Origin: Eledone cirrhosa | Taxonomy: Eukaryota | Assembly: GCA_964016885.1 (NCBI GenBank) | Contig: OZ024741.1 | Span: forward strand, 251,658,001-251,722,000 | Direction of reading: 5' to 3' | Length of the DNA stretch: 64,000 bases | Shown here: positions 1-41,651 of the stretch, one piece after another | Layout of the letters: each line of letters opens with the position of its first letter | How positions within the stretch are numbered: position 1 is the stretch's first letter | Notes under the pieces: generated by a model | Database searches by the model: none | Told to the model about the DNA's origin: nothing | The model's input: only the letters and a program-made list of their open reading frames with translations | Position numbers and translations under genes: made by a program

Positions 1-635
1 AGCAACGACTCCGTTGGAGTGGTCACATTGCCAGGATGAAGGATTCTAGAATACCAAAACAACTCTTTTATGGAGAGTTAGTTTGAGGAAAACGACCGCT
101 ACATAAACCAAAAAAGAGGTATAAGGATTCCTTGAAAACCTCTTTGAAAGACGCTAACATCTCTGCTGATACATGGGAAAATATTGCTGCTGATCGTAAT
201 AAATGGAGAAAGACTGTATATGAGGGAAAAGTTGCCTTTGAGGCATCTCGAATCGCATACGAGAAAGTAAAGCGGGATGTGAGGAAGGGCATTGCTGTTG
301 CACTTCCAGACGGCGAGGGTCCTCCTATGGTGCTGACATGCAGCGTCTGTGCGAGACTCTGCCGAAGCAAAGCTGGACTCAAAAGTCATCTTCGCAGTCA
401 TAAAGTAAGACCAGTGGTTGACTACCAGGCTGCTGTTGGAGATGCTACTCATCATGCTTGCCAAGCATGTGGTAGAGAATGTAAATCAGCAGGAGAGCTC
501 AAACGACATATAAAAGTACATGAACTCCAACCACAACCGACTATTCCCAGTGAATGTTTTGGTTGCCGACTCTGTGCAAGACATTTTAGATCATTGGCTG
601 GGCTAAAAAGCCACATTCGATCACAGCGCTGTTAA
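1..635 (+). mobile_element. 3' end of an RTE-clade LINE ORF (BovB-like C-terminus) ending in three C2H2-type zinc fingers; pseudogenised
   Basis: Frame from nt 3 reads QRLRWSGHIARMKDSRIPKQLFYGELV*GKRPLHKPKKRYKDSLK...WENIAADRNKWR, a typical RTE C-terminal region, with a premature TGA at 84-86. It continues into CSVC..HLRSH, CQAC..HIKVH and CRLC..HIRSQRC. Confidence 0.85.
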
Positions 636-13290: not shown

Positions 13291-13361
13291 GATGTGTTGG
13301 TGTAATGGTAGCACAGTGGTCGCGATAACCAAAGATATGGGTTCGACTCCCATGTACGTCA
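13291..13361 (+). pseudogene. tRNA-like cloverleaf (SINE head or tRNA pseudogene), not a canonical tRNA
   Basis: Acceptor gatgtgt/gtacgtc, D arm gtgt/gcac with A-box tggtgtaatgg, anticodon arm tggt/acca with loop cgcgata (no U33), T arm atggg-ttcgact-cccat, and TTTTT downstream. Confidence 0.65.
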
Positions 13362-20445: not shown

Positions 20446-20829
20446 CATACATATATCTATATAGATACATATATATACATATATATCTATATATATATAT
20501 ATAGTAAAAAATTAAACGGGAACAAAACAGAGAGGCAGTACAAACAAAGGTTTATTAGTTTCACGCTCTTGAGAGTGGGGTGGTGATATATATAGATAAA
20601 TAGATACATATATGTATATATATATGGTGGCTGCCAACTCGTTTTCGAGTATGGCCACTACTTTATATCCATGTAGGAGAACCCCTACTGATGCACTGAA
20701 TGAGTGTGACGTTTTAGTCCAGCCAGCGACTTGAAAACTCTGGTACAAACACTACACTTGTGACAATTATTGACACATAGTGCTGGGCCCATGGTACCAT
20801 GTGATGACAAGTGCAGAGAGATCTCCAGA

Positions 20830-20928
20830 TATAAAGCTGTGCTCCTGCCGTTTTGACAGCTAGGTTCAGACCTCCTAGCTGTTGAAACGCTCAGAGCTGA
20901 GTTGTCGGGGTCCTGACCCTTTTCCTAT
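20830..20928 (+). mobile_element. Diverged copy of the GC-rich fold-back half-hammerhead family
   Basis: gacagctagg...cctagctgtt GAAA cgctcagagctgagttg TC ggggtc resembles 40271-40325. Confidence 0.55.
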
Positions 20929-21347: not shown

Positions 21348-24300
21348 CATCATCATCATCATCTTCGTTTAATGTCCATTTTCCACGCTAGCATGGGTTA
21401 GACGGGAGTTGTCCCACTTGAGGCAAGGTTGGTCGGGTGACTGTGTCTCGCTCATATAGGACTATCTGGTAGGTTTTCTACGGCTGGATGCCCTTCCTAA
21501 CACCTACCACATTTACAGTGTGGAACTGGGAACTTTTTACCGTGTTACCTACACGGCCACATTACAGCATGGACTGTGTGTGTTTTTTGTCGTGACACCT
21601 ACACGATCTCGATCTCATTAGCTCATGCTGTTGGTGGGAGTGGGAGGATAGGGTAGGGGTAGTGGGACGGGGTGTATATTTGGTTAAGAGGTGTCTACTG
21701 ACTGTAGGTTTCGCTTTGTACTTAGGCAAGGCGGGTCTTCTGTATTGCTGCGTAGCACCAAAGATCTCAGTCCAGTGACATTGTCTTAGAGAGGTGTAAG
21801 TGTCTGAGGTCGGAATTTATCAGATCATCCCAGGTTTTTCTGGGTCTACCTACTCCATAACTACCATCAATTTTGATCGCCCTGCACTTTTTTATGCAGC
21901 TGTCGTTTTTCATGCGCATGATGTGACTATACCAACGTAGTCTTCTCTCAAGTAAACAGCATCTGATCCCTCTTATTCCTAATTTCTCACTTAGTTGATT
22001 TATGCTTTGCCGTTCAAGTATATTACTATTATACATCCAACGGAGCATGCATGCTTCGTTCCTTTCTAGTCTGAGCAGGTCCTCTGCACGTAATGCCCAG
22101 GTCTCACTGCCATGTAGCATTGGTGCTCGTATACAGGCATCATACAATCTGCCTTTCATTTTTAGAGAGAAACCTTTTGTGGCCAACAGCGGTATAAGGT
22201 CTCTGAACTTTTTCCATCCCGTTCTGACTCTGGCTACTGTACTTTCAGAACACCCTCCACCACTACTGATTTCGTCACCTAGGTAATGGAAAGTGTCTAC
22301 TATTTCTATAGAACCATCTGGGCAATAGAAGGAGCTAGTATCATTTGGACAGTTGCTACTTATTGCACCTGAGCATTGGCCACATATAAAGTCAACGTTC
22401 TTAGATAGTTTACCTGTGATCCCACTACATCTTTTATGTACCTATACTTTGCATTTGGGACATAAAATGGAATTTCTGCCTACTCCTTTCCTACACACTG
22501 AGCATGGCCATTTCCCTGAGGACACCTGTGCCCTATTTTCCTTTCTACAAACTAGAACTTTAGTCTTAGACAAGTTAACTTTAAGACCTTTTGATTCTAG
22601 GCCATGCTTCCATGTTTCAAATTTCTTCTCTAGTTCAGCCATTGATTCAGCTATGAGCGTTAGATCATCTGCGTATAGGAGTTCCCATGGCAGCCGGTCT
22701 TGAACTCCTCTGTTATAGCCTGAAGGGCAATAATAAATAAGAGGGGGACTAAGGACAAAGCCTTGATGAACGCCAACTTTTACACTAAATTCTTCACAAT
22801 ATTCATTGTTACTTCTAGCCTTACTGACTGTTTCATTATACATAGCTTGTATAGCTCTCACAAGCCAATCATCTACACCTAGTTTTCTAAGAGCCCACCA
22901 GATAATGGAGCGGGGGACTCTGTCAAAGGCTTTCTCCAGGTCTACAAAAGCTAAGTAGAAGGGTTTACTTTTAGCTAGGTACTTCTCTTGTAGTTGTCGT
23001 ACAAGTAAAAGAGCGTCTGTGGTACTTTTACCTGACACAAACCCAAACTGCATTTCATCTAGATCAATTCGCTCTCTGATTAGTTGCGCTATAACTCTTT
23101 CTGTGACCTTCATGACCTGGTCAACTAACTTAATGCCTCTATAGTTTCCCCTATCTAGAGCATCCCCTTTACCCTTGTAGCAGTTAATGATGATGCTGCT
23201 ACGCCAGTCTTTCGGTATGACCCCATTCTGTATTACTTTGTTAACTATACGGGTGACCATAGTGTGTCCCACCATACCAGATGCCTTCAACATCTCAGCA
23301 ACTATCTCCGAAGGTCCAGCTGCCTTGCCTGTCTTCATATCTTTGATTGCCTTACTTATTATACTACCTTTAACTTGCACCGCTGGTCCTTCTATTGGAT
23401 TGATTTGGGGCAGACTATCTTTTTCCCATTTATTCTTCTCATTTAATAGTCTCTCGTAGTGACACTTCCAGGCTATCTTCTTATCAGTATCAGTGAGCGC
23501 AAGTACACCATTATCATTACGGACACACTTCTCTCCGACAATATCACGGTTTTCCTTGACACATTGTCTAGCAATCCTGAACACCTCACGTCTTTGGTCC
23601 TCACGTTGTAGAACATGCTTGAACTTTCTATCCTCTGCTACCCTTTTTGCAAGGTACACTTGTCTCCTAGCTTCTCTCCAGTCCATTTGATAGTGCTCTC
23701 TACTTCCCCCATCCTGCCATACTTTCCAAGCCTGCTTTTTGGCCTTGATTGTCTCTTCCACTTTACTGTTCCATCACCAAGTTACTCTCCTCCTGCCAAT
23801 AGGTCTGCTCCAGCCACAGATTTCATCCATTGCTTTCAACGGGTTCACTTTCAAGAATTGCCACTGTTCCTCTATATTGTACGTCTCTAATTGCTCTTAC
23901 TTATTGTCAAAGGCATCAAGTAATGAGCTTTTAAATTTGTCACTGGCTATGGGGTCCTTCAACTTCCATATTCTTCTCCTCAAGGTAGGCCTCCTCTGTC
24001 GTCGAGTACGTCTATTTCTGACTATGAGGTCACTAACTACTAGGCTATGTTGGGAGGTGCATTCTTCATGGGGGAGGGATTTAGTGTTTACAACAGACAT
24101 TTTGCCCCGTCTTCTAGTAAGGATATAATCTATCTGGCTGGCGTGTTCCCCTGATCTATAGGTGATCAAGTGGTTTTCATGTTTTTTGAAGTTTGTGTTA
24201 CAGATAGTTAGGCTATTTGCGTCACAGAATTCCAGGATTCTGAAGCCCTCCTCATTTCTATTTCCAACCCCATAGCCTCCATCGATTCCATCATAGCCAT

Positions 24301-25356
24301 CACTATGTTGTCCAACGTGTCCGTTTAAATTGCCAGCAATAATTAAGTAGTCACTGTCGGTTATTTGGGAGGTAGTGTGCATTAGCATCTCATAGAACCT
24401 GTCTTTTATAACCTCAGGTAGATCAGATTGGGGTGCATAATCAGATATTATTGTCACAGTAGTTCTATTTAGAACTAGTCTTAATTTAATTATTCTGTCA
24501 TTCACTCGCTTTACGTCAATTACCTTATCTACCCATTTTTCAGCTAACATAATTCCTACACCACCCTGTCCGTTGTCATTTCCCACCTAGAAAAGTTTAT
24601 AGCATCGTTTTTTACCCACGATGAATCTGGCAGACCCCCCTCTCCACCTAGTCTCTTGAATACAACAAACATCAACTTCTTTACGTTCAAGCATCTCTAC
24701 AACCTCATTTGAGCGACCTTTCAATGTGCCTACGTTCATGGTACCAACTCTGAAGTTGGGAGGGTGGGATGGGTTGGATGGGCAGGGAGGGGTGTGGGAG
24801 ACGGGATTTTGTTGGTCATCTGTGTCTGAAATAAATAGGGGTCCTTGTATTCTCGTCTTGCAGTGGGAGGTGAATTTATCTTTATCTGTGACATTGTCAT
24901 TGAGTGCTTAGACTTTTCAAATTTCCACAATCAATCCATCAAACAGGTCTAAACTTAAGGAGTAGTAACCGGGGTGGTAGATTTGCTATACTGATTTGTT
25001 AGAGAACTTACTAAAGTCGCTGAGTTATGATTGGACCGTTAGCAATGGTGGTGGTGGTGGTGGGGGGGGGGCAATGTTGGGGGAAATGGTGGTGTTGTGG
25101 GAAATGGGTGACTTTAGGAGAAGTTTAGTTTTTAGGAAGGGTCCAACAGATTGAGACATATTAAAAACATGTAAAATAATAATTTAAAATCCGAGAGGAA
25201 AACGGAGAATTTGATTTTTAGTGTGGTATAAATAAGAGTTTAAAACACTGCTTAATTGAGGAGACTAAGGAATGAAGAAAAGACAGGTTTTGCTTACATT
25301 CTCAAAATCGCCAGATCGCCCGTAAGATATTTTAATAGATAAATTCTGTCGTTGGG
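21348..25356 (-). mobile_element. Near-full-length RTE LINE (APE endonuclease + RT with internal PHD-type finger), inactivated by stops and frameshifts
   Basis: APE motifs VGTMNVGTL, CCIQETRW, IIAGNLNGH, SQIDYIL, SQH; RT motifs KGKGDALDRGNYRGIKL, QFGF, AFVDLEKAFD, GVHQG, LLYADD, FHYLG; RTE tail ERRLRWYSHIMR, GRPRKTW; (GAT)n 3' tail; (TA)n on both sides. The 5' boundary is approximate. Confidence 0.95.
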
Positions 25357-25412: not shown

Positions 25413-25802
<390 letters not shown>

Positions 25803-28440: not shown

Positions 28441-29249
28441 GGCCAGTTAATGTATTGTATCTGGTAGATCTTGAAGTATCTGGAGGTAAGAACTCAACAT
28501 CCTGAAGCATCTCAGATAGATCTGGTGGTCCAGGCTGAATATATTCTTCACTAAATACACACACACGCACACACGCACACATATATATATGAAGTATTTC
28601 CATAGGAAGGGTAAAGGAAAGGAGAGTGCTCTATGTATGGTACAGAGCTATTTAATTATGAACTAAACAACATAAGACAATTATTCCATTTACCAAAGGT
28701 AAATGGAATAATTGTCTTGACAGGCGGGCCCAACAGAGACGTCTGAAATCGCTCATCAGAATGAAAATTTAATATGGACGTAAGATATGAATTTAAAAAC
28801 AAAGGCTAATACAATTGAAAGCAAGGCTGATATACAATAAAATAAAGATAAGAAATAAAATAAAATAACAATCGAAGTTTGAAAGCCATGACAATGCAAA
28901 ATAGACGGATAAACAAACAAGTCGGATGAAACAAGATGTGTTTTTTACCTTACTTTATTTATATGTCCTGATACTTCAAGATTAAAATCTCTTCTTCCAA
29001 GGAAAATAAAAGGGACTAACTCAGTGTCTGATGTAGCACACTATACTATGTTGGCATCATTTTTACATCTGCCTTTCCATGCTTATGTGGATTGGATGTG
29101 TGTATATATAATTAAGAGACAAAGACTGTCATATAAAATGGTCATAGCTCTGGTTATTTCCTTATTCACTCAATAACCAATTAATTTTGTATTATTAAAG
29201 TTTGTATTATTAAAATTCAAGTCCAACTGGTTAGAATGCACACATGTCA

Positions 29250-29390
29250 ATCTGTAAGGAAGATGACTTCATGTAGATTCTCAAAAAGTATTCAATACAT
29301 TGGAAGTGTATAGGCATTTTTGAATTTATATAGAAATGACTTCTACAGGACTAGACCTGTTTCATTTGTATGAAATCATCATGAATGTGC
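29250..29390 (-). mobile_element. Degenerate copy of the AT-rich hammerhead family
   Basis: Minus strand ttc aTGATGA tttcatacaaat GAAA CAG gtctagtc CTG TA gaa, then the tail variant gtattgaatac. Confidence 0.65.
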
Positions 29391-29454: not shown

Positions 29455-30200
29455 ATCATCATCATCATCATCACCATTTTACGTCTGTTCTTCCATGCTA
29501 GCATGGGTTAGACGGGTTGTCCTGTTGTGGGCAGTGTCCAGTCGGCTGACCTTGTCTTGCTCATACGGACACTGATTCTGGCTTGATTTCTACAGCTGGA
29601 TGCCCTTCCTAACACCAACCTCATTTACAGTGAGTGCTGGGTGCTTTTTTCCCGTGGCGCCTAAACGTCCACTTTAGAGTGTGGGCTGGGTGCTTTTTTG
29701 CCGTGGCACCTCCATGACCACTTTACAGGGGGAGGGGATGGGGGTATATTGTCTATATGCTTCAGCTTCGGCTTGTACCCGTGGGAAATCGAGCTTCTGT
29801 ATTACTGCTTGATACCAGAGGTCATGGTCCTGTCTCATCGCCTTTGAGAGATGTAATTGGGTAAGGTCGGCTTTTATCACCTCATCCCAGGTCCATACCA
29901 ACACAACCTCCTCTCCTGCACACAGCATTTGATTCCTCTTATGCTCAGTCTCTCTCTCAATTCGTTTATGCTTTGCCGTTCGCGTATTACACATCCATTG
30001 GAGCATGCAAGCTTTGTTTCTTTTTAATCTACACAAGTCTTCCACAGACAGCACCCAGGTCTCACTACCATGTAACATTGCTGTTTGTATACACGCATCA
30101 TACAGTCTGCCTTTCATTTTGAGGGAAAAGCCTTTTGCAGCTAGCAGTGGCAGTAGCTCCCTGAACATCTTCCATCCCGTTCTTACCCTAGTTATTGTAC
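29455..30200 (-). mobile_element. RTE LINE 3' fragment, long-UTR type
   Basis: FRELLPLLAAKGFSLKMKGRLYDACIQTAMLHGSETW; UTR carries the aggaagggcatccagc module; (GAT)n tail. Confidence 0.9.
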
Positions 30201-30965
30201 TTTCTTACCCTAGTTATTGTACTTTTCATATACCTATATATGACAAAATTTGTGGTCCTGAATTTGTTCATATTACCCACACTACTACCCCAAGTATTGA
30301 GTACTCTGGTGAGTAATGATCTAACTGGTTTTTACTGCATCCATTCTGATTTATATATATATATATACAGAGAGAGGGGTGGGGAGATAGGATTTTAATA
30401 ATAGAGTCAGTGATACTGTAGTGATAAACAGTATGTCTTGAGCATTTAAAACCTAGTGGAATCCATCTCTCTCTTGATCTGAACACAGAGAAAACAAATG
30501 AGAAAGCAATATTGAGTAAGAATCAGACCCTAGTACATGACTGGTACTATATTTATTGAACCTCAAAAGGACGAAAACATGATTTGAATGAATGCCAGGC
30601 AGCATTCTATCTGACATTCTTATGACTCTGCCAGTTCACTGCCTTCAGTTAATATATATGCTCATGTATAATTTATACCTGTAGATAAGTTACAACTCCA
30701 TTTTACATACAACATTTACAATGGACAATATTTTTTCAAATTGAGGTTTTGAGTATTTAGTAGATATGTCACATGCGAATGTTTGATGTCATATTTTTGT
30801 GGAAACTGGCATGACTTATTTACGATGATGTTGATTCAAAAATATACCCAGTCCATCCTTTAACTCTTTACTATTTAAACCGACTGTATCTGGCCAAAGT
30901 TCTCTCACCTCTTTCTATTCAAACTGGCTGTAACCAGCTGCTCATACTGATGTTAAGGTATTGTT

Positions 30966-34839: not shown

Positions 34840-37240
34840 GAATAAGCACAAGACTTGACAAAACACACAGGAAAATTTAGAAAAGGAAAGTATTGAAGGT
34901 AAAGGACCTGTCTGTTAAATATAGGTTTAGGAAAGCCATACATGATGTTTATGACAAGAAAGAGGAGGAGTAAGATGTATATGACATAGAGGACAATTGG
35001 AAGTTTCTACAAGACAACCTACTGCAGACTACTGATGAAACATGTGGCTGGAGTAAAGCACCAGTTTGACAGAGACTTGCTGGTGGAACAGCACTGTGGA
35101 TAGGGCTGTTAAAGAAAATATGTAGGCATGGAAAAATTGGAAAAATGGAGGCAGCAAAGATCAATATCAAGTAGCTAAAAGTGAAGCTACTTGATATAAA
35201 TACGACAGGTATACATAGCGTACAAAGAAACTGAAAGTGGGAGGTTTGCCATTGTGATGTGAGGATCAAAGGAGATGAAAAAGGGTAAGGCTGCTAGTCC
35301 ACTAGAGATAGCCTCTAAGATGCTGAAATCTTCTGGGAAAGTAAGAATTGAGTCAGCCAAATAATCAGTCAGGTAGTACATGATGGGGACATACTCAGTG
35401 ACTGGTGTAATAGTATACTCACAAGGAAAAAGATGATGCACAAGAAAAGAACAACTACAGGGACATCTATAATATAATAAAGGGAGGAGTGTGGGACAGC
35501 ATCCATTTTATATTTTTTTTTATCCTGTTAGTAAAATAAGTTGGATTATTTTGAATAAATAATGAATGAATATTATGTAATTTATCTACTAAATTTTGTA
35601 GCTCTTGATTAAACATAAATGTTCTTATACATAAAGTATTGCTTATTTTAAGATTCACTTCTTTAAAATTTTCAAATGACAACACTTCTGATTAGCATCC
35701 ATTATATTATAACACAACGGTGGATTGGCAGTATCGGTATGCTTTGACGCATAGAGTTACGGCCCTTGCCATTCTGAGTTCAAATCCCGCCGAGGTTAAC
35801 TTTGCCTTTTATCCTTACAAGGTCGATAAAATAAATTACCAGTAATGCACTGGGTAATTGCTGGCCTTGTGCCAAAAGTAGAAACAATTATATTATAACT
35901 TTCTCTTTCATCCTTACAGGGTCGATAAAATAAAGTACCAGTAATGCACTGGGTAATTGCTGGCCTTGTGCCCAAAAGTAGAAGCAATTATATTATAACA
36001 CTTATTACATCGTTTATATAAACGTTCATATATTTGCATCGTTATATAAGGTTTATATTTCTGTCTCTAATTTTCTCCTTTTTCATTTTCATAACATTAT
36101 CATATATACAGTTTATAGATAATATCGTCTTTTATTTATGTATCATGGATTACTTTAGTGATTACAGAAGAGAGTGTAACACAGACTTCGTTCCATTTCT
36201 GTGCATATTGTCAATTACGATTTCATTTGACATATCATATCTACATGCATATATATTTGCGTATAATATCACTATGCACACTACACATGCTAGCAGAAAA
36301 CCACCCAAAAGGTGGTTTTTCTGCTAGTAAAACTAATGAAAGTGGCAGAGAGAGTCTTAGCACAACTAATTAGAGAAAGAATCAAATTTAGATGAGATGC
36401 AACTTGATTTTGTGAAACAACTACAGGAGAAATTCCTAGATAAGTGTAAACCAATATATTTGGATTTTTTCTATTTGGAGAAGATCTTTGATAGAGTACC
36501 ACGATCTGTCATTTGCTGGTCCTTAAGGAAAGCAGATGTATATAAATGGCTTGTAAGAACAGTGCAAGGAACAGTGCAAGAACAGAGTAAGGTGAGAGTA
36601 GGTCATGAGTTTAGTGAGGAATTCAAACTGCAGATAGGTGTTCATCAGACCTCACCCATTTATTATAGACCTCCAAGCTATAACAGAGGAGTTAAGACAC
36701 AGGTAATCTATGGGAACTTCTGTATACCGATGACCAGGTTCTTATAACCAAATCAGTGGAAAAGCTAGGAAAGAAATTCTGGCTTTGAAAACAGAATTAG
36801 ATTCAAAAGGGCTTACAACAAACATTGGTAAGCAGAAAAGAAGACTCTGATCCCATCAGGAAAGTGTCCTTGCTCGATATGTAGAAAAGGCGTAGGTAGT
36901 AACTCTATTCGATGTACACAATGTAAATCTTGGGTTCAAAAGAGGTGTAGTGGTAAACTTTGTATGTGACAGATGCACAGAGATAGTTAGTAGTAAGATC
37001 ATCAGTAAAATATACATTTTCCAATCGCCCAAAAGGATATATAGATGTAGCTGATAGCTTCTGCTACCTATGGAAGAGGCTGTATCAAAGGCATAGTAGC
37101 TAGAGTAAGAACAGGGTGGAAAAAGTAACTATGTTGAAAACAAAAAGTTTCTCTCTACAGAAAAATAAGCCAGCTATATATAAAATGCCTGAGTGTGAAG
37201 TGTGACGCTGCTTGGGAGCGAGACATAAAAAATTGACAAG
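34840..37240 (+). mobile_element. Older RTE copy related to the 21-25 kb element, split by later insertions (~35470-36320)
   Basis: QLQEKFLDK..LEKIFDRVPRSVICWSLRK, IGVHQ and the PHD-type CSICRKGVGSNSIRCTQCKSWVQKRC...FVCDRC. Confidence 0.8.
35718..35995 (+). mobile_element. SINE family 1 followed by a second 5'-truncated copy in tandem
   Basis: Two consecutive core and tail units, each ending aacaattatattataac or agcaattatattataac. Confidence 0.85.
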
Positions 37241-39535: not shown

Positions 39536-39584
<49 letters not shown>

Positions 39585-39848
39585 TGCTTCATTTGTATGG
39601 TTTCATAGGAATAAGACAGATTTAGTTCTGTAGAAGTAATTTCTAAATAAGATAATTGAGTTTCTCTTCTAATGTATTGAGTACCTTATTTAACTGTGAA
39701 TTCTTTCCAATTCCTCTTCAGAAAACCATCCTTAATTAAATATGCACACACACCCCACACACATATGTATACAGAAATATATATATATATATATATTATA
39801 TACATGTTATATATATATATATATATACACATATATTATATATATTAT

Positions 39849-40130: not shown

Positions 40131-40132
<2 letters not shown>

Positions 40133-40325
40133 CGAGGGAAAAGTGGTAAGGAACCAGGTGGACCATAACGCACCAAAGTACTCAATACTTAGGGTAGTAG
40201 AGTGGATAATAGGAGTAAGTAAGACCCCGACGGCTGAGCTCAAGCCGTTTCGACGGCTAATTCCAGTACAGAATTAGCCGTCGAAACGGCTTGAGCTCAG
40301 CCGTCGGGGTCTTACTTACTCCTAT
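40131..40325 (-). mobile_element. GC-rich fold-back family element with a perfect 55-bp inverted repeat, in (TA)n
   Basis: Arms 40209-40263 and 40271-40325 with a 7-nt spacer; tail carries GTATTGAGTAC on the minus strand. Confidence 0.9.
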
Positions 40326-41481: not shown

Positions 41482-41522
<41 letters not shown>

Positions 41523-41526
<4 letters not shown>

Positions 41527-41651
41527 AAAAAGTATGACCCCGACGGCAGAGCTCAAGCCGTTTCGACGGCTATTACCCACTCTACTACCCTACGTATTGA
41601 GTACTCTGGTGCGTTATGGCCCATCTGGTTCCTTAACACAATTCCTTCATT
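41523..41651 (+). mobile_element. GC-rich fold-back family element (one arm missing) in (TA)n
   Basis: gaccccgacggcagagctcaagccgtttcgacggcta joined directly to the GTATTGAGTAC tail. Confidence 0.8.

Follow-up and report, generated by a model that had tools for sequence, protein, structure and literature searches.

The locus studied here raises the question of what kind of mobile element carries half a hammerhead ribozyme, and how its two arms came to face each other. Both the way in which Penelope-like elements form inverted ends and the purpose of their ribozyme are stated to be open in the available text of PMC8557442 and PMC11167929. The window, that is, the whole 64,000-nucleotide stretch of Eledone cirrhosa DNA that was analyzed, is animal DNA in which microsatellites and remnants of LINEs are abundant. 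Within it, copies of a short repeat occur near 20830, 25541, 40131, 41523, 43091 and 55196; they are dispersed, and no tandem array of the unit was found in the window.

An earlier note on this DNA had described these six copies as bearing the 3' half of a type I hammerhead, and this proved to be real: a 23-nt motif made up of GAAA, stem III and the GUC site had 7 matches in the window with up to 3 mismatches versus none in 100 shuffles, and the diverged copy near 20830 was detected by BLAST alone (E 0.003). Family copies possess the GAAA, stem III and UH site of a type I hammerhead. Stem III consists of 6 bp (ACGGCT/AGCCGT) and its 7-nt loop contains GAGCTC; one stem III change each was observed in 41523 and 55196, and the right arm of 43091 has AAAA instead of GAAA. 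The CUGANGA strand and the 5' strands of stems I and II are missing from all six copies, which thus carry the 3' half only. As the note had also claimed, no copy has CUGANGA; the 29 CTGANGA sites in the window all lie away from the family copies, with none in or beside any of them. A search of the window for the predicted 5' half of the ribozyme gave no match, and CUGANGA is reached by none of the nine GAAA-bearing arms of the family in the window. A type II hammerhead, with CUGANGA downstream of stem I, was considered and rejected, the core being absent there. It should be noted that Rfam reported no hammerhead in 40133-40322 and also none in a complete sibling hammerhead described below, so that it is blind here; its matches were weak and of hairpin type only.

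The copy at 40131 shows the arrangement most simply. Its direct arm (40209..40263, minus strand) comprises the 3' half of the hammerhead plus 8 variable nt, is continuous with a tail, and pairs over 55 bp with 40271-40325 at 0 mismatches, so the 55-bp arms previously reported at 40209-40325 stand. Between the arms, at the position of loop II, is a 7-nt non-palindromic junction (40264..40270), and beyond it a tail-less inverted arm (40271..40325, plus strand) contains the stem II 3' strand (40275-40282), GAAA (40283-40286), stem III (40286-40304), C17 (40305) and the stem I 3' strand (40306-40311). The copy at 43088..43292 (plus strand) also has inverted arms, which the note had given as 62 bp long by counting from 43091; they start at 43088, are 65 bp in length (43088-43217) with 3 mismatches, and meet in a perfect palindromic junction with no spacer, followed by a tail at 43218-43292. 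These two are the only full palindromes among the six copies, which corrects the description of the family as a palindrome. Three copies are strongly asymmetric: 25540..25690 (plus strand; inverted arm of ∼58 bp, direct arm of 16-20 bp, tail), 41522..41650 (plus strand; inverted arm of ∼51 bp meeting the tail via a 4-nt overlap) and 55199..55342 (minus strand; inverted arm of ∼55 bp, direct arm of ∼10 bp, tail). The older copy at 20828..20927 (plus strand), which belongs to a second subfamily, is a tail-less partial palindrome with a 9-nt non-palindromic loop.

With the tail taken as the 3' end, the first (TA)n is followed by the inverted arm, and after the junction come the direct arm, the tail and a second (TA)n; an inverted 5'-truncated copy next to the 5' end, a trait of endonuclease-bearing (EN+) Penelope-like elements, is present in family copies. 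TA runs flank both sides in five of the six copies and one side in 20830. The inverted arm is 51-65 bp long in all five tailed copies and its inner end lies 0-14 nt past the stem II 3' strand, whereas the direct arm measures ∼4, 10, 16-20, 55 and 65 bp; the inverted arm exceeds the tail-side piece in three of these five. Junctions do cluster in loop II, where the note had placed the axis, but with arm ends spread over 0-14 nt they do not fall exactly on one point. The 8 variable nt near the outer end of the arm are mirrored inside each copy and differ from copy to copy, suggesting that the arms are remade at least now and then.

The previous description omitted a tail module of ∼80 bp, found in five of the six copies and one-sided in all five, as well as a tail-only copy near 30270. 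In the 40131 copy this module spans 40133..40208 (minus strand), abuts (TA)n and, in the orientation that the element probably has, forms its 3' end; identity among the five copies is 87-95%, and the diverged tail-only copy (30268..30345, plus strand) is 74-81% identical to the other tails. Within the module, a bulged hairpin, ACTC-TAC...GTA-TT-GAGT (40180..40203, minus strand), is a candidate recognition site for reverse transcriptase (RT), as its matches in the window and in metagenomes suggest. Its form, CTC-TAC...GTA-TT-GAG with a two-base bulge, has 6 matches in the window versus 0.03 expected. The tail motif GTATTGAGTAC occurs exactly nine times in the window, six times in the half-hammerhead family and three times in other short repeats, and two of these three outside occurrences follow complete type I hammerheads (47391 and 45318). 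GAAA lies 63 nt before GTATTGAGTAC in 40131 and 43091 and 57-63 nt before it in these siblings, and the distance from the outer end of the inverted arm to the hairpin is 5 nt in the half-hammerhead family and 6 nt in the sibling.

Another reading, which goes back to the earlier note, is that the half-ribozyme still works: an RNA with the CUGANGA half would cleave it in trans. Stem III, GAAA and GUC are intact in most arms, and according to PMC4209133 Penelope ribozymes can act as dimers; however, the palindromic RNA is predicted to fold into one 55-bp hairpin (−112 kcal/mol) that would hide the half-ribozyme motif, the asymmetric copies have the motif on the strand opposite the tail hairpin, and the partner sequence was not found in the window. 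Trans cleavage is thus not supported and appears very improbable. For a single arm plus tail, folding stability was not significant (z −0.1 to −1.3).

The sibling family shares this layout and keeps its ribozyme. At 47283..47517 (plus strand), a complete hammerhead is present in both arms (CTGATGA at 47391 on the plus strand and at 47341 on the minus strand), followed by the same tail hairpin, and the junction lies ∼25 nt upstream of the core. A second copy at 45190..45372 (minus strand) has its junction ∼5 nt upstream of the core, which is again found in both arms, one of them decayed; both arms of both palindromic copies therefore keep the core. In alignment, GAAAC of the sibling is in register with that of the half-hammerhead family. 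Further Hydra-type stubs of the sibling family were observed at 29285-29390 and 39580-39735; hammerheads in this family are complete or decayed, and their stem II is weak and AU-rich.

Among the 104 open reading frames (ORFs) of the window, none encodes an RT with a C-terminal GIY-YIG domain and the RWK, DKT and CxCX5C motifs. Other repeats are plentiful. Three long ORFs (366, 453 and 750 aa) at 57735-62640 (plus strand), with a partial repeat of their end at 62766-63203, are presumably a fairly intact LINE of L1/Tx1 type (gag-like, AP endonuclease and RT), and we take 21767-24586 (minus strand), 29674-30204 and 36370-36747 to be broken remnants of RTE-type LINEs with endonuclease and RT stretches. 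An ORF at 87-635 (plus strand) contains an RTE-like C-terminal stretch and then several C2H2-like zinc-finger motifs, and a tRNA-like sequence at 13291-13361 (plus strand; 42.6 bits, above the Rfam gathering score) is probably a SINE head. Long strand-skewed satellite blocks occupy 47649-57016 (a 21-bp unit in ∼125 copies, and units of 47 and 82 bp), and a TA array at 45486-46956 has long internal repeats visible in translation, which suggests duplicated segments inside the microsatellite.

Relatives were sought in metagenomes with a pattern combining the hammerhead core and the tail motif GTATTGAGYAC, which returned at least 120 loci. A stem test was passed by 82 of 121 loci examined, the 121 including one (L001) judged to be a chance match within an ORF. 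CTCTRC, the other side of the hairpin and outside the search pattern, stands just upstream of the tail motif in 103 of the 120 loci listed, versus 1.7% in shuffles. The closing pair of the hairpin is A-T in all six window matches and G-C in 98 of these 103 loci; covariation is thin, with one of eight pairs changing on both sides and 94% of cells pairing in 24 chosen loci. In viral contigs the hairpin pattern was found at 28 loci, none of which has a ribozyme core upstream.

Judged by eye, a Hydra-type ORF ends upstream in 5 of the 120 loci listed, so that the same layout is found beside Hydra-type ORF ends in the DNA of other animals. In L006, a 707-aa ORF with RWK, DKT, CxCX5C and YRDDG ends 95 nt before the ribozyme; 2,895 homologues were found at E up to 1e-30 among 8,000 candidates, and a Pfam search with this ORF gave no significant match. 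L009, L087 and L115 resemble the 3' end of Hydra-2_Amil, and L011 the ribozyme of Penelope-1_NV, again by eye; the consensus ends of Hydra-1_Obim, Hydra-1_Ajap and Hydra-2_Ajap were seen by eye to be without the exact tail motif. Among the loci listed, L002-L121 indicate that Hydra-type elements of animal-associated metagenomes are mostly short stubs.

Scans for an inverted arm yielded 37 rows and then 35 loci, out of 94 with at least 120 nt of upstream DNA; this set is biased to short arms, since short-read assemblies lose long palindromes. The tail motif lies inside the arm in none of the 35. Of 32 loci in which the outer end of the inverted arm could be measured, 31 have it 3-9 nt short of the hairpin. 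Pairing stops between −13 and +29 relative to CUGANGA in all 35, and in 13 of these it stops within the ribozyme. Each of the 35 has an upstream flank of its own. In L002-L121, many junctions coincide with a TTAA/TTTAAA palindrome that immediately precedes stem I, and short duplicated pieces occur at the junction in L015, L019, L031, L050 and L075.

A covariance model was built from 24 of the 120 listed loci, with L001, L037, L109 and L114 left out as probable chance matches. Siblings scored 38-39 bits and background up to 16.3 bits; the five tailed copies scored 20.7-31.5 bits, values that are partly circular because GTATTGAGYAC and the core were fixed by the search pattern. Two more hammerhead-like matches to the model were observed in the window, at 28623-28767 (minus strand; 36.1 bits), which has a variant tail hairpin, and at 43498-43574 (plus strand; 32.2 bits), which has none. 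The longest BLAST match of the family to the 120 listed loci was 42 nt, and the family's own half-hammerhead motif had no match in viral or metagenome contigs. A 16-mer matched 120 prokaryote loci (longest match 44 nt, next 27); these were judged to be chance. The apparent link to Hydra elements is therefore one of layout and short motifs, not of long sequence identity.

A tail hairpin and layout common to complete hammerheads and Hydra-type ORF ends indicate that the hammerhead likeness is not a coincidence and that the family is of Penelope type. This bears directly on the possibility of a DNA-transposon MITE or a Helentron-type repeat with a fortuitous likeness to a hammerhead. Such an element might show inverted repeats, TA at its flanks and a 6-mer that recurs, as it does three times in the arm. 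The flanks, where a target-site duplication of fixed length is expected of a MITE, are TA runs. The tail lies outside the inverted repeat, so terminal inverted repeats do not bound the whole unit, and arm length varies from 4 to 65 bp; the same layout with complete hammerheads and Hydra-type ORFs speaks against it as well. This alternative is largely refuted and has little probability left.

The Hydra clade is marked by RWK, DKT and CxCX5C (PMC8557442, Craig et al. 2021). The inverted copy, the tail and the preference for (TA)n have been described there for Hydra and Naiad elements, and several Hydra ribozymes are reported to have a 7-bp stem II whose 3' strand begins with TA or TG and ends before CGAA. 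Compared with the clade members given in that source (Hydra-1_Amil, Hydra-2_Amil, Hydra-1_Obim and Penelope-1_NV), the window family shares (TA)n insertion, an inverted 5'-truncated copy, a tail at one end, the 3' type I hammerhead frame and, with several families, a 7-bp TA-flanked stem II; it has the tail motif in common with Hydra-2_Amil. On the other hand, the window copies were seen without an ORF and without CUGANGA, stem III, at 6 bp with a 7-nt loop, is longer than the 3-4 bp tabulated for Hydra, the tail measures ∼80 nt versus 30-40 as described, and the sequence of Hydra-1_Obim differs from that of the family. On this basis, the family most likely represents 3' stubs of a Hydra-clade Penelope-like retrotransposon, likely left by insertions that fused two cDNAs, each primed on its own, head to head within loop II. 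Its copies are likely derivatives without a ribozyme; they are not filed as full Hydra-clade members because the core and the ORF are missing in every copy seen.

The closest published insertions are the inverted pLTR insertions of Penelope and Poseidon (Arkhipova 2013, PMC3846280; Frangieh 2024, PMC11167929), which also have head-to-head arms, a palindromic junction, an optional tail set by two RT start sites and an AT-rich target; as described, their arms are ∼180-220 bp long and include the whole ribozyme, whereas those of the window family are 50-65 bp long and cut in loop II. The dispersed minimal hammerheads of truncated Penelope-like elements (Cervera and De la Pena 2014, PMC4209133) share single or opposite-strand motifs and a palindromic loop 3, but according to that source they were found through a complete core, and stubs lacking it, such as those in the window, escape such descriptors. 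Non-LTR retrozymes (PMC7229834; bioRxiv 10.64898/2026.07.22.740005) are likewise non-autonomous, ribozyme-related and probably derived from Penelope-like elements; they are described as tandem direct repeats with complete active ribozymes, and the window family consists of dispersed inverted stubs with half a ribozyme. An octopus repeat annotation (PMC13282606) does not mention hammerheads or Hydra in its available text, and its supplements may list the family.

For the Poseidon element, two RT start sites have been reported to define the tail in vitro, with cutting and extension of both strands of the target and no requirement for cleavage by the ribozyme (PMC11167929). By analogy, a Hydra-type RT/endonuclease acting in trans would bind the RNA at the tail hairpin and nick both (TA)n strands; one strand would prime at the tail end and the other ∼5 nt upstream of the hairpin. 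Synthesis of the cDNA on the tail side would then stop at variable places and the other cDNA would run to loop II, after which the two cDNA ends could anneal via short palindromes or microhomology. Such twin priming would account for the one-sided tail, the identical arms, the fixed outer end and the unequal inner ends. With regard to the stop in loop II, the cDNAs may be terminated or joined by the long GC-rich stem II and the loop's short palindromes; alternatively, the core may already be absent from the master. The CUGANGA half was likely never copied, and the half-ribozyme would be carried along as a passenger, without catalysing anything. Nearly all junctions, both in the family and in its metagenome relatives, are located upstream of the cleavage site, which suggests that the template was likely uncleaved.

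The alternative put forward in the earlier note is snap-back, in which a single cDNA folds over at the stem II hairpin and serves as its own template. Self-priming was proposed in 2013 from such palindromic junctions in Penelope (PMC3846280), and 40131 and 43091, which are symmetric and in the latter case perfectly palindromic at the centre, are what it would produce. Clustering of the junctions in loop II is likewise in keeping with snap-back. Against it, the short arm sits on the tail side in all three asymmetric copies, and snap-back cannot make the inverted arm the longer one unless these copies are later deletions of palindromes, which they could be. The longer inverted arms favour two separately primed cDNAs. 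Snap-back alone would also leave unexplained the fixed arm end, 3-9 nt from the hairpin, in other families, which a second RT start site explains.

Further evidence comes from sequences matching the 40133-40290 reference: 13,785 contigs in set X1, 36 in X4 (under another species label) and 399 in X5, and 23,052 of the 12,467,656 RAD reads in set X16. Joints connect the tail at 40170-40214 to the loop edge at 40259-40269, with at most 14 letters between them, in 14 of 15 listed out of 29, the landing at 40263-40269 being partly forced by where the reference arm starts. The inverted arm is longer than the tail-side piece in 14 of the 15 listed. Four listed joints start at 40170-40179, where the hairpin has not yet been passed; they leave the tail before the partner start of the other arm, which again counts against snap-back. 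Taken together, we consider snap-back unlikely, and two separately primed cDNAs remain the preferred reading.

Among those listed, loose ends of the reads and contigs were (TA)n at the tail end (before 40143) and at the outer end of tail-less arms. Beyond the loop, two subfamilies could be distinguished, one continuing like the centre of 43091 and the other like the loop of 20830. Three observations from these data were set aside: 7,223 molecule ends at 40262 in X16 lie on an AATT site, presumably the cut of the library enzyme, and were left out as evidence; the depth drop at 40265 is uninformative because the loop is copy-specific; and one loose-end row of X16 weakly resembles a decayed core, to a degree within chance.

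Twin priming leaves room for two kinds of template. One that carried a complete ribozyme has a somewhat better than even chance, and one itself without a ribozyme a chance somewhat short of even. The latter is the basis of a rival to the best explanation, in which a ribozyme-less non-autonomous master is maintained: read-through transcripts of copies already lacking the core would be copied again in trans, and the tail hairpin would be the one signal required. The template is the sole difference, and twin priming is compatible with both. Several findings would fit such a master. None of the nine GAAA-bearing family arms extends to the core, which the sibling arms keep and past which 22 of the 35 inverted arms of relatives pair; the family is abundant in the RAD reads and X1 contigs; and cleavage was found dispensable for insertion in vitro (PMC11167929). 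The reverse complement of CUGANGA was seen in none of the seven listed loose-end consensus rows beyond the loop, but these rows are only 30 nt long and mixed (agreement 0.48-0.71 in six of seven), nor do they run on into a mirrored arm. In addition, two of the three rows of the second subfamily pass through a 10-nt loop into 4-5 nt of the stem II 5' strand, as the natural hairpin of a longer template would, and the mirrored variable 8 nt, with arms remade at least occasionally, also weigh against it. We regard a ribozyme-less master as a real possibility with appreciably less than an even chance.

The type of element and the idea of self-priming are already published. In the available text of the papers surveyed, neither the tail hairpin nor the clustering of junctions was found described, and no family without the core was found either. 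A bolder proposal can be offered only tentatively: that a very abundant ribozyme-less mini-Penelope family spreads in trans by its conserved bulged tail hairpin alone, that this hairpin determines two RT start sites in Hydra-clade elements from distant animals, and that twin priming generates the head-to-head inversions, with their junctions held at the hammerhead.

The many short stubs, each with two measurable arm lengths, allow a direct count between snap-back and twin priming. The tail hairpin, with its fixed spacing of 3-9 nt to the end of the second arm in three independent family groups, is a candidate recognition site for RT and a marker for Hydra-type stubs missed by ribozyme searches. 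The core-less state, the hairpin and the asymmetry of the arms provide a testable handle on an open mechanism. If true, the mini-Penelope reading would offer evidence, taken from a genome, that Penelope elements can move without the ribozyme, and it would delimit the minimal cis element.
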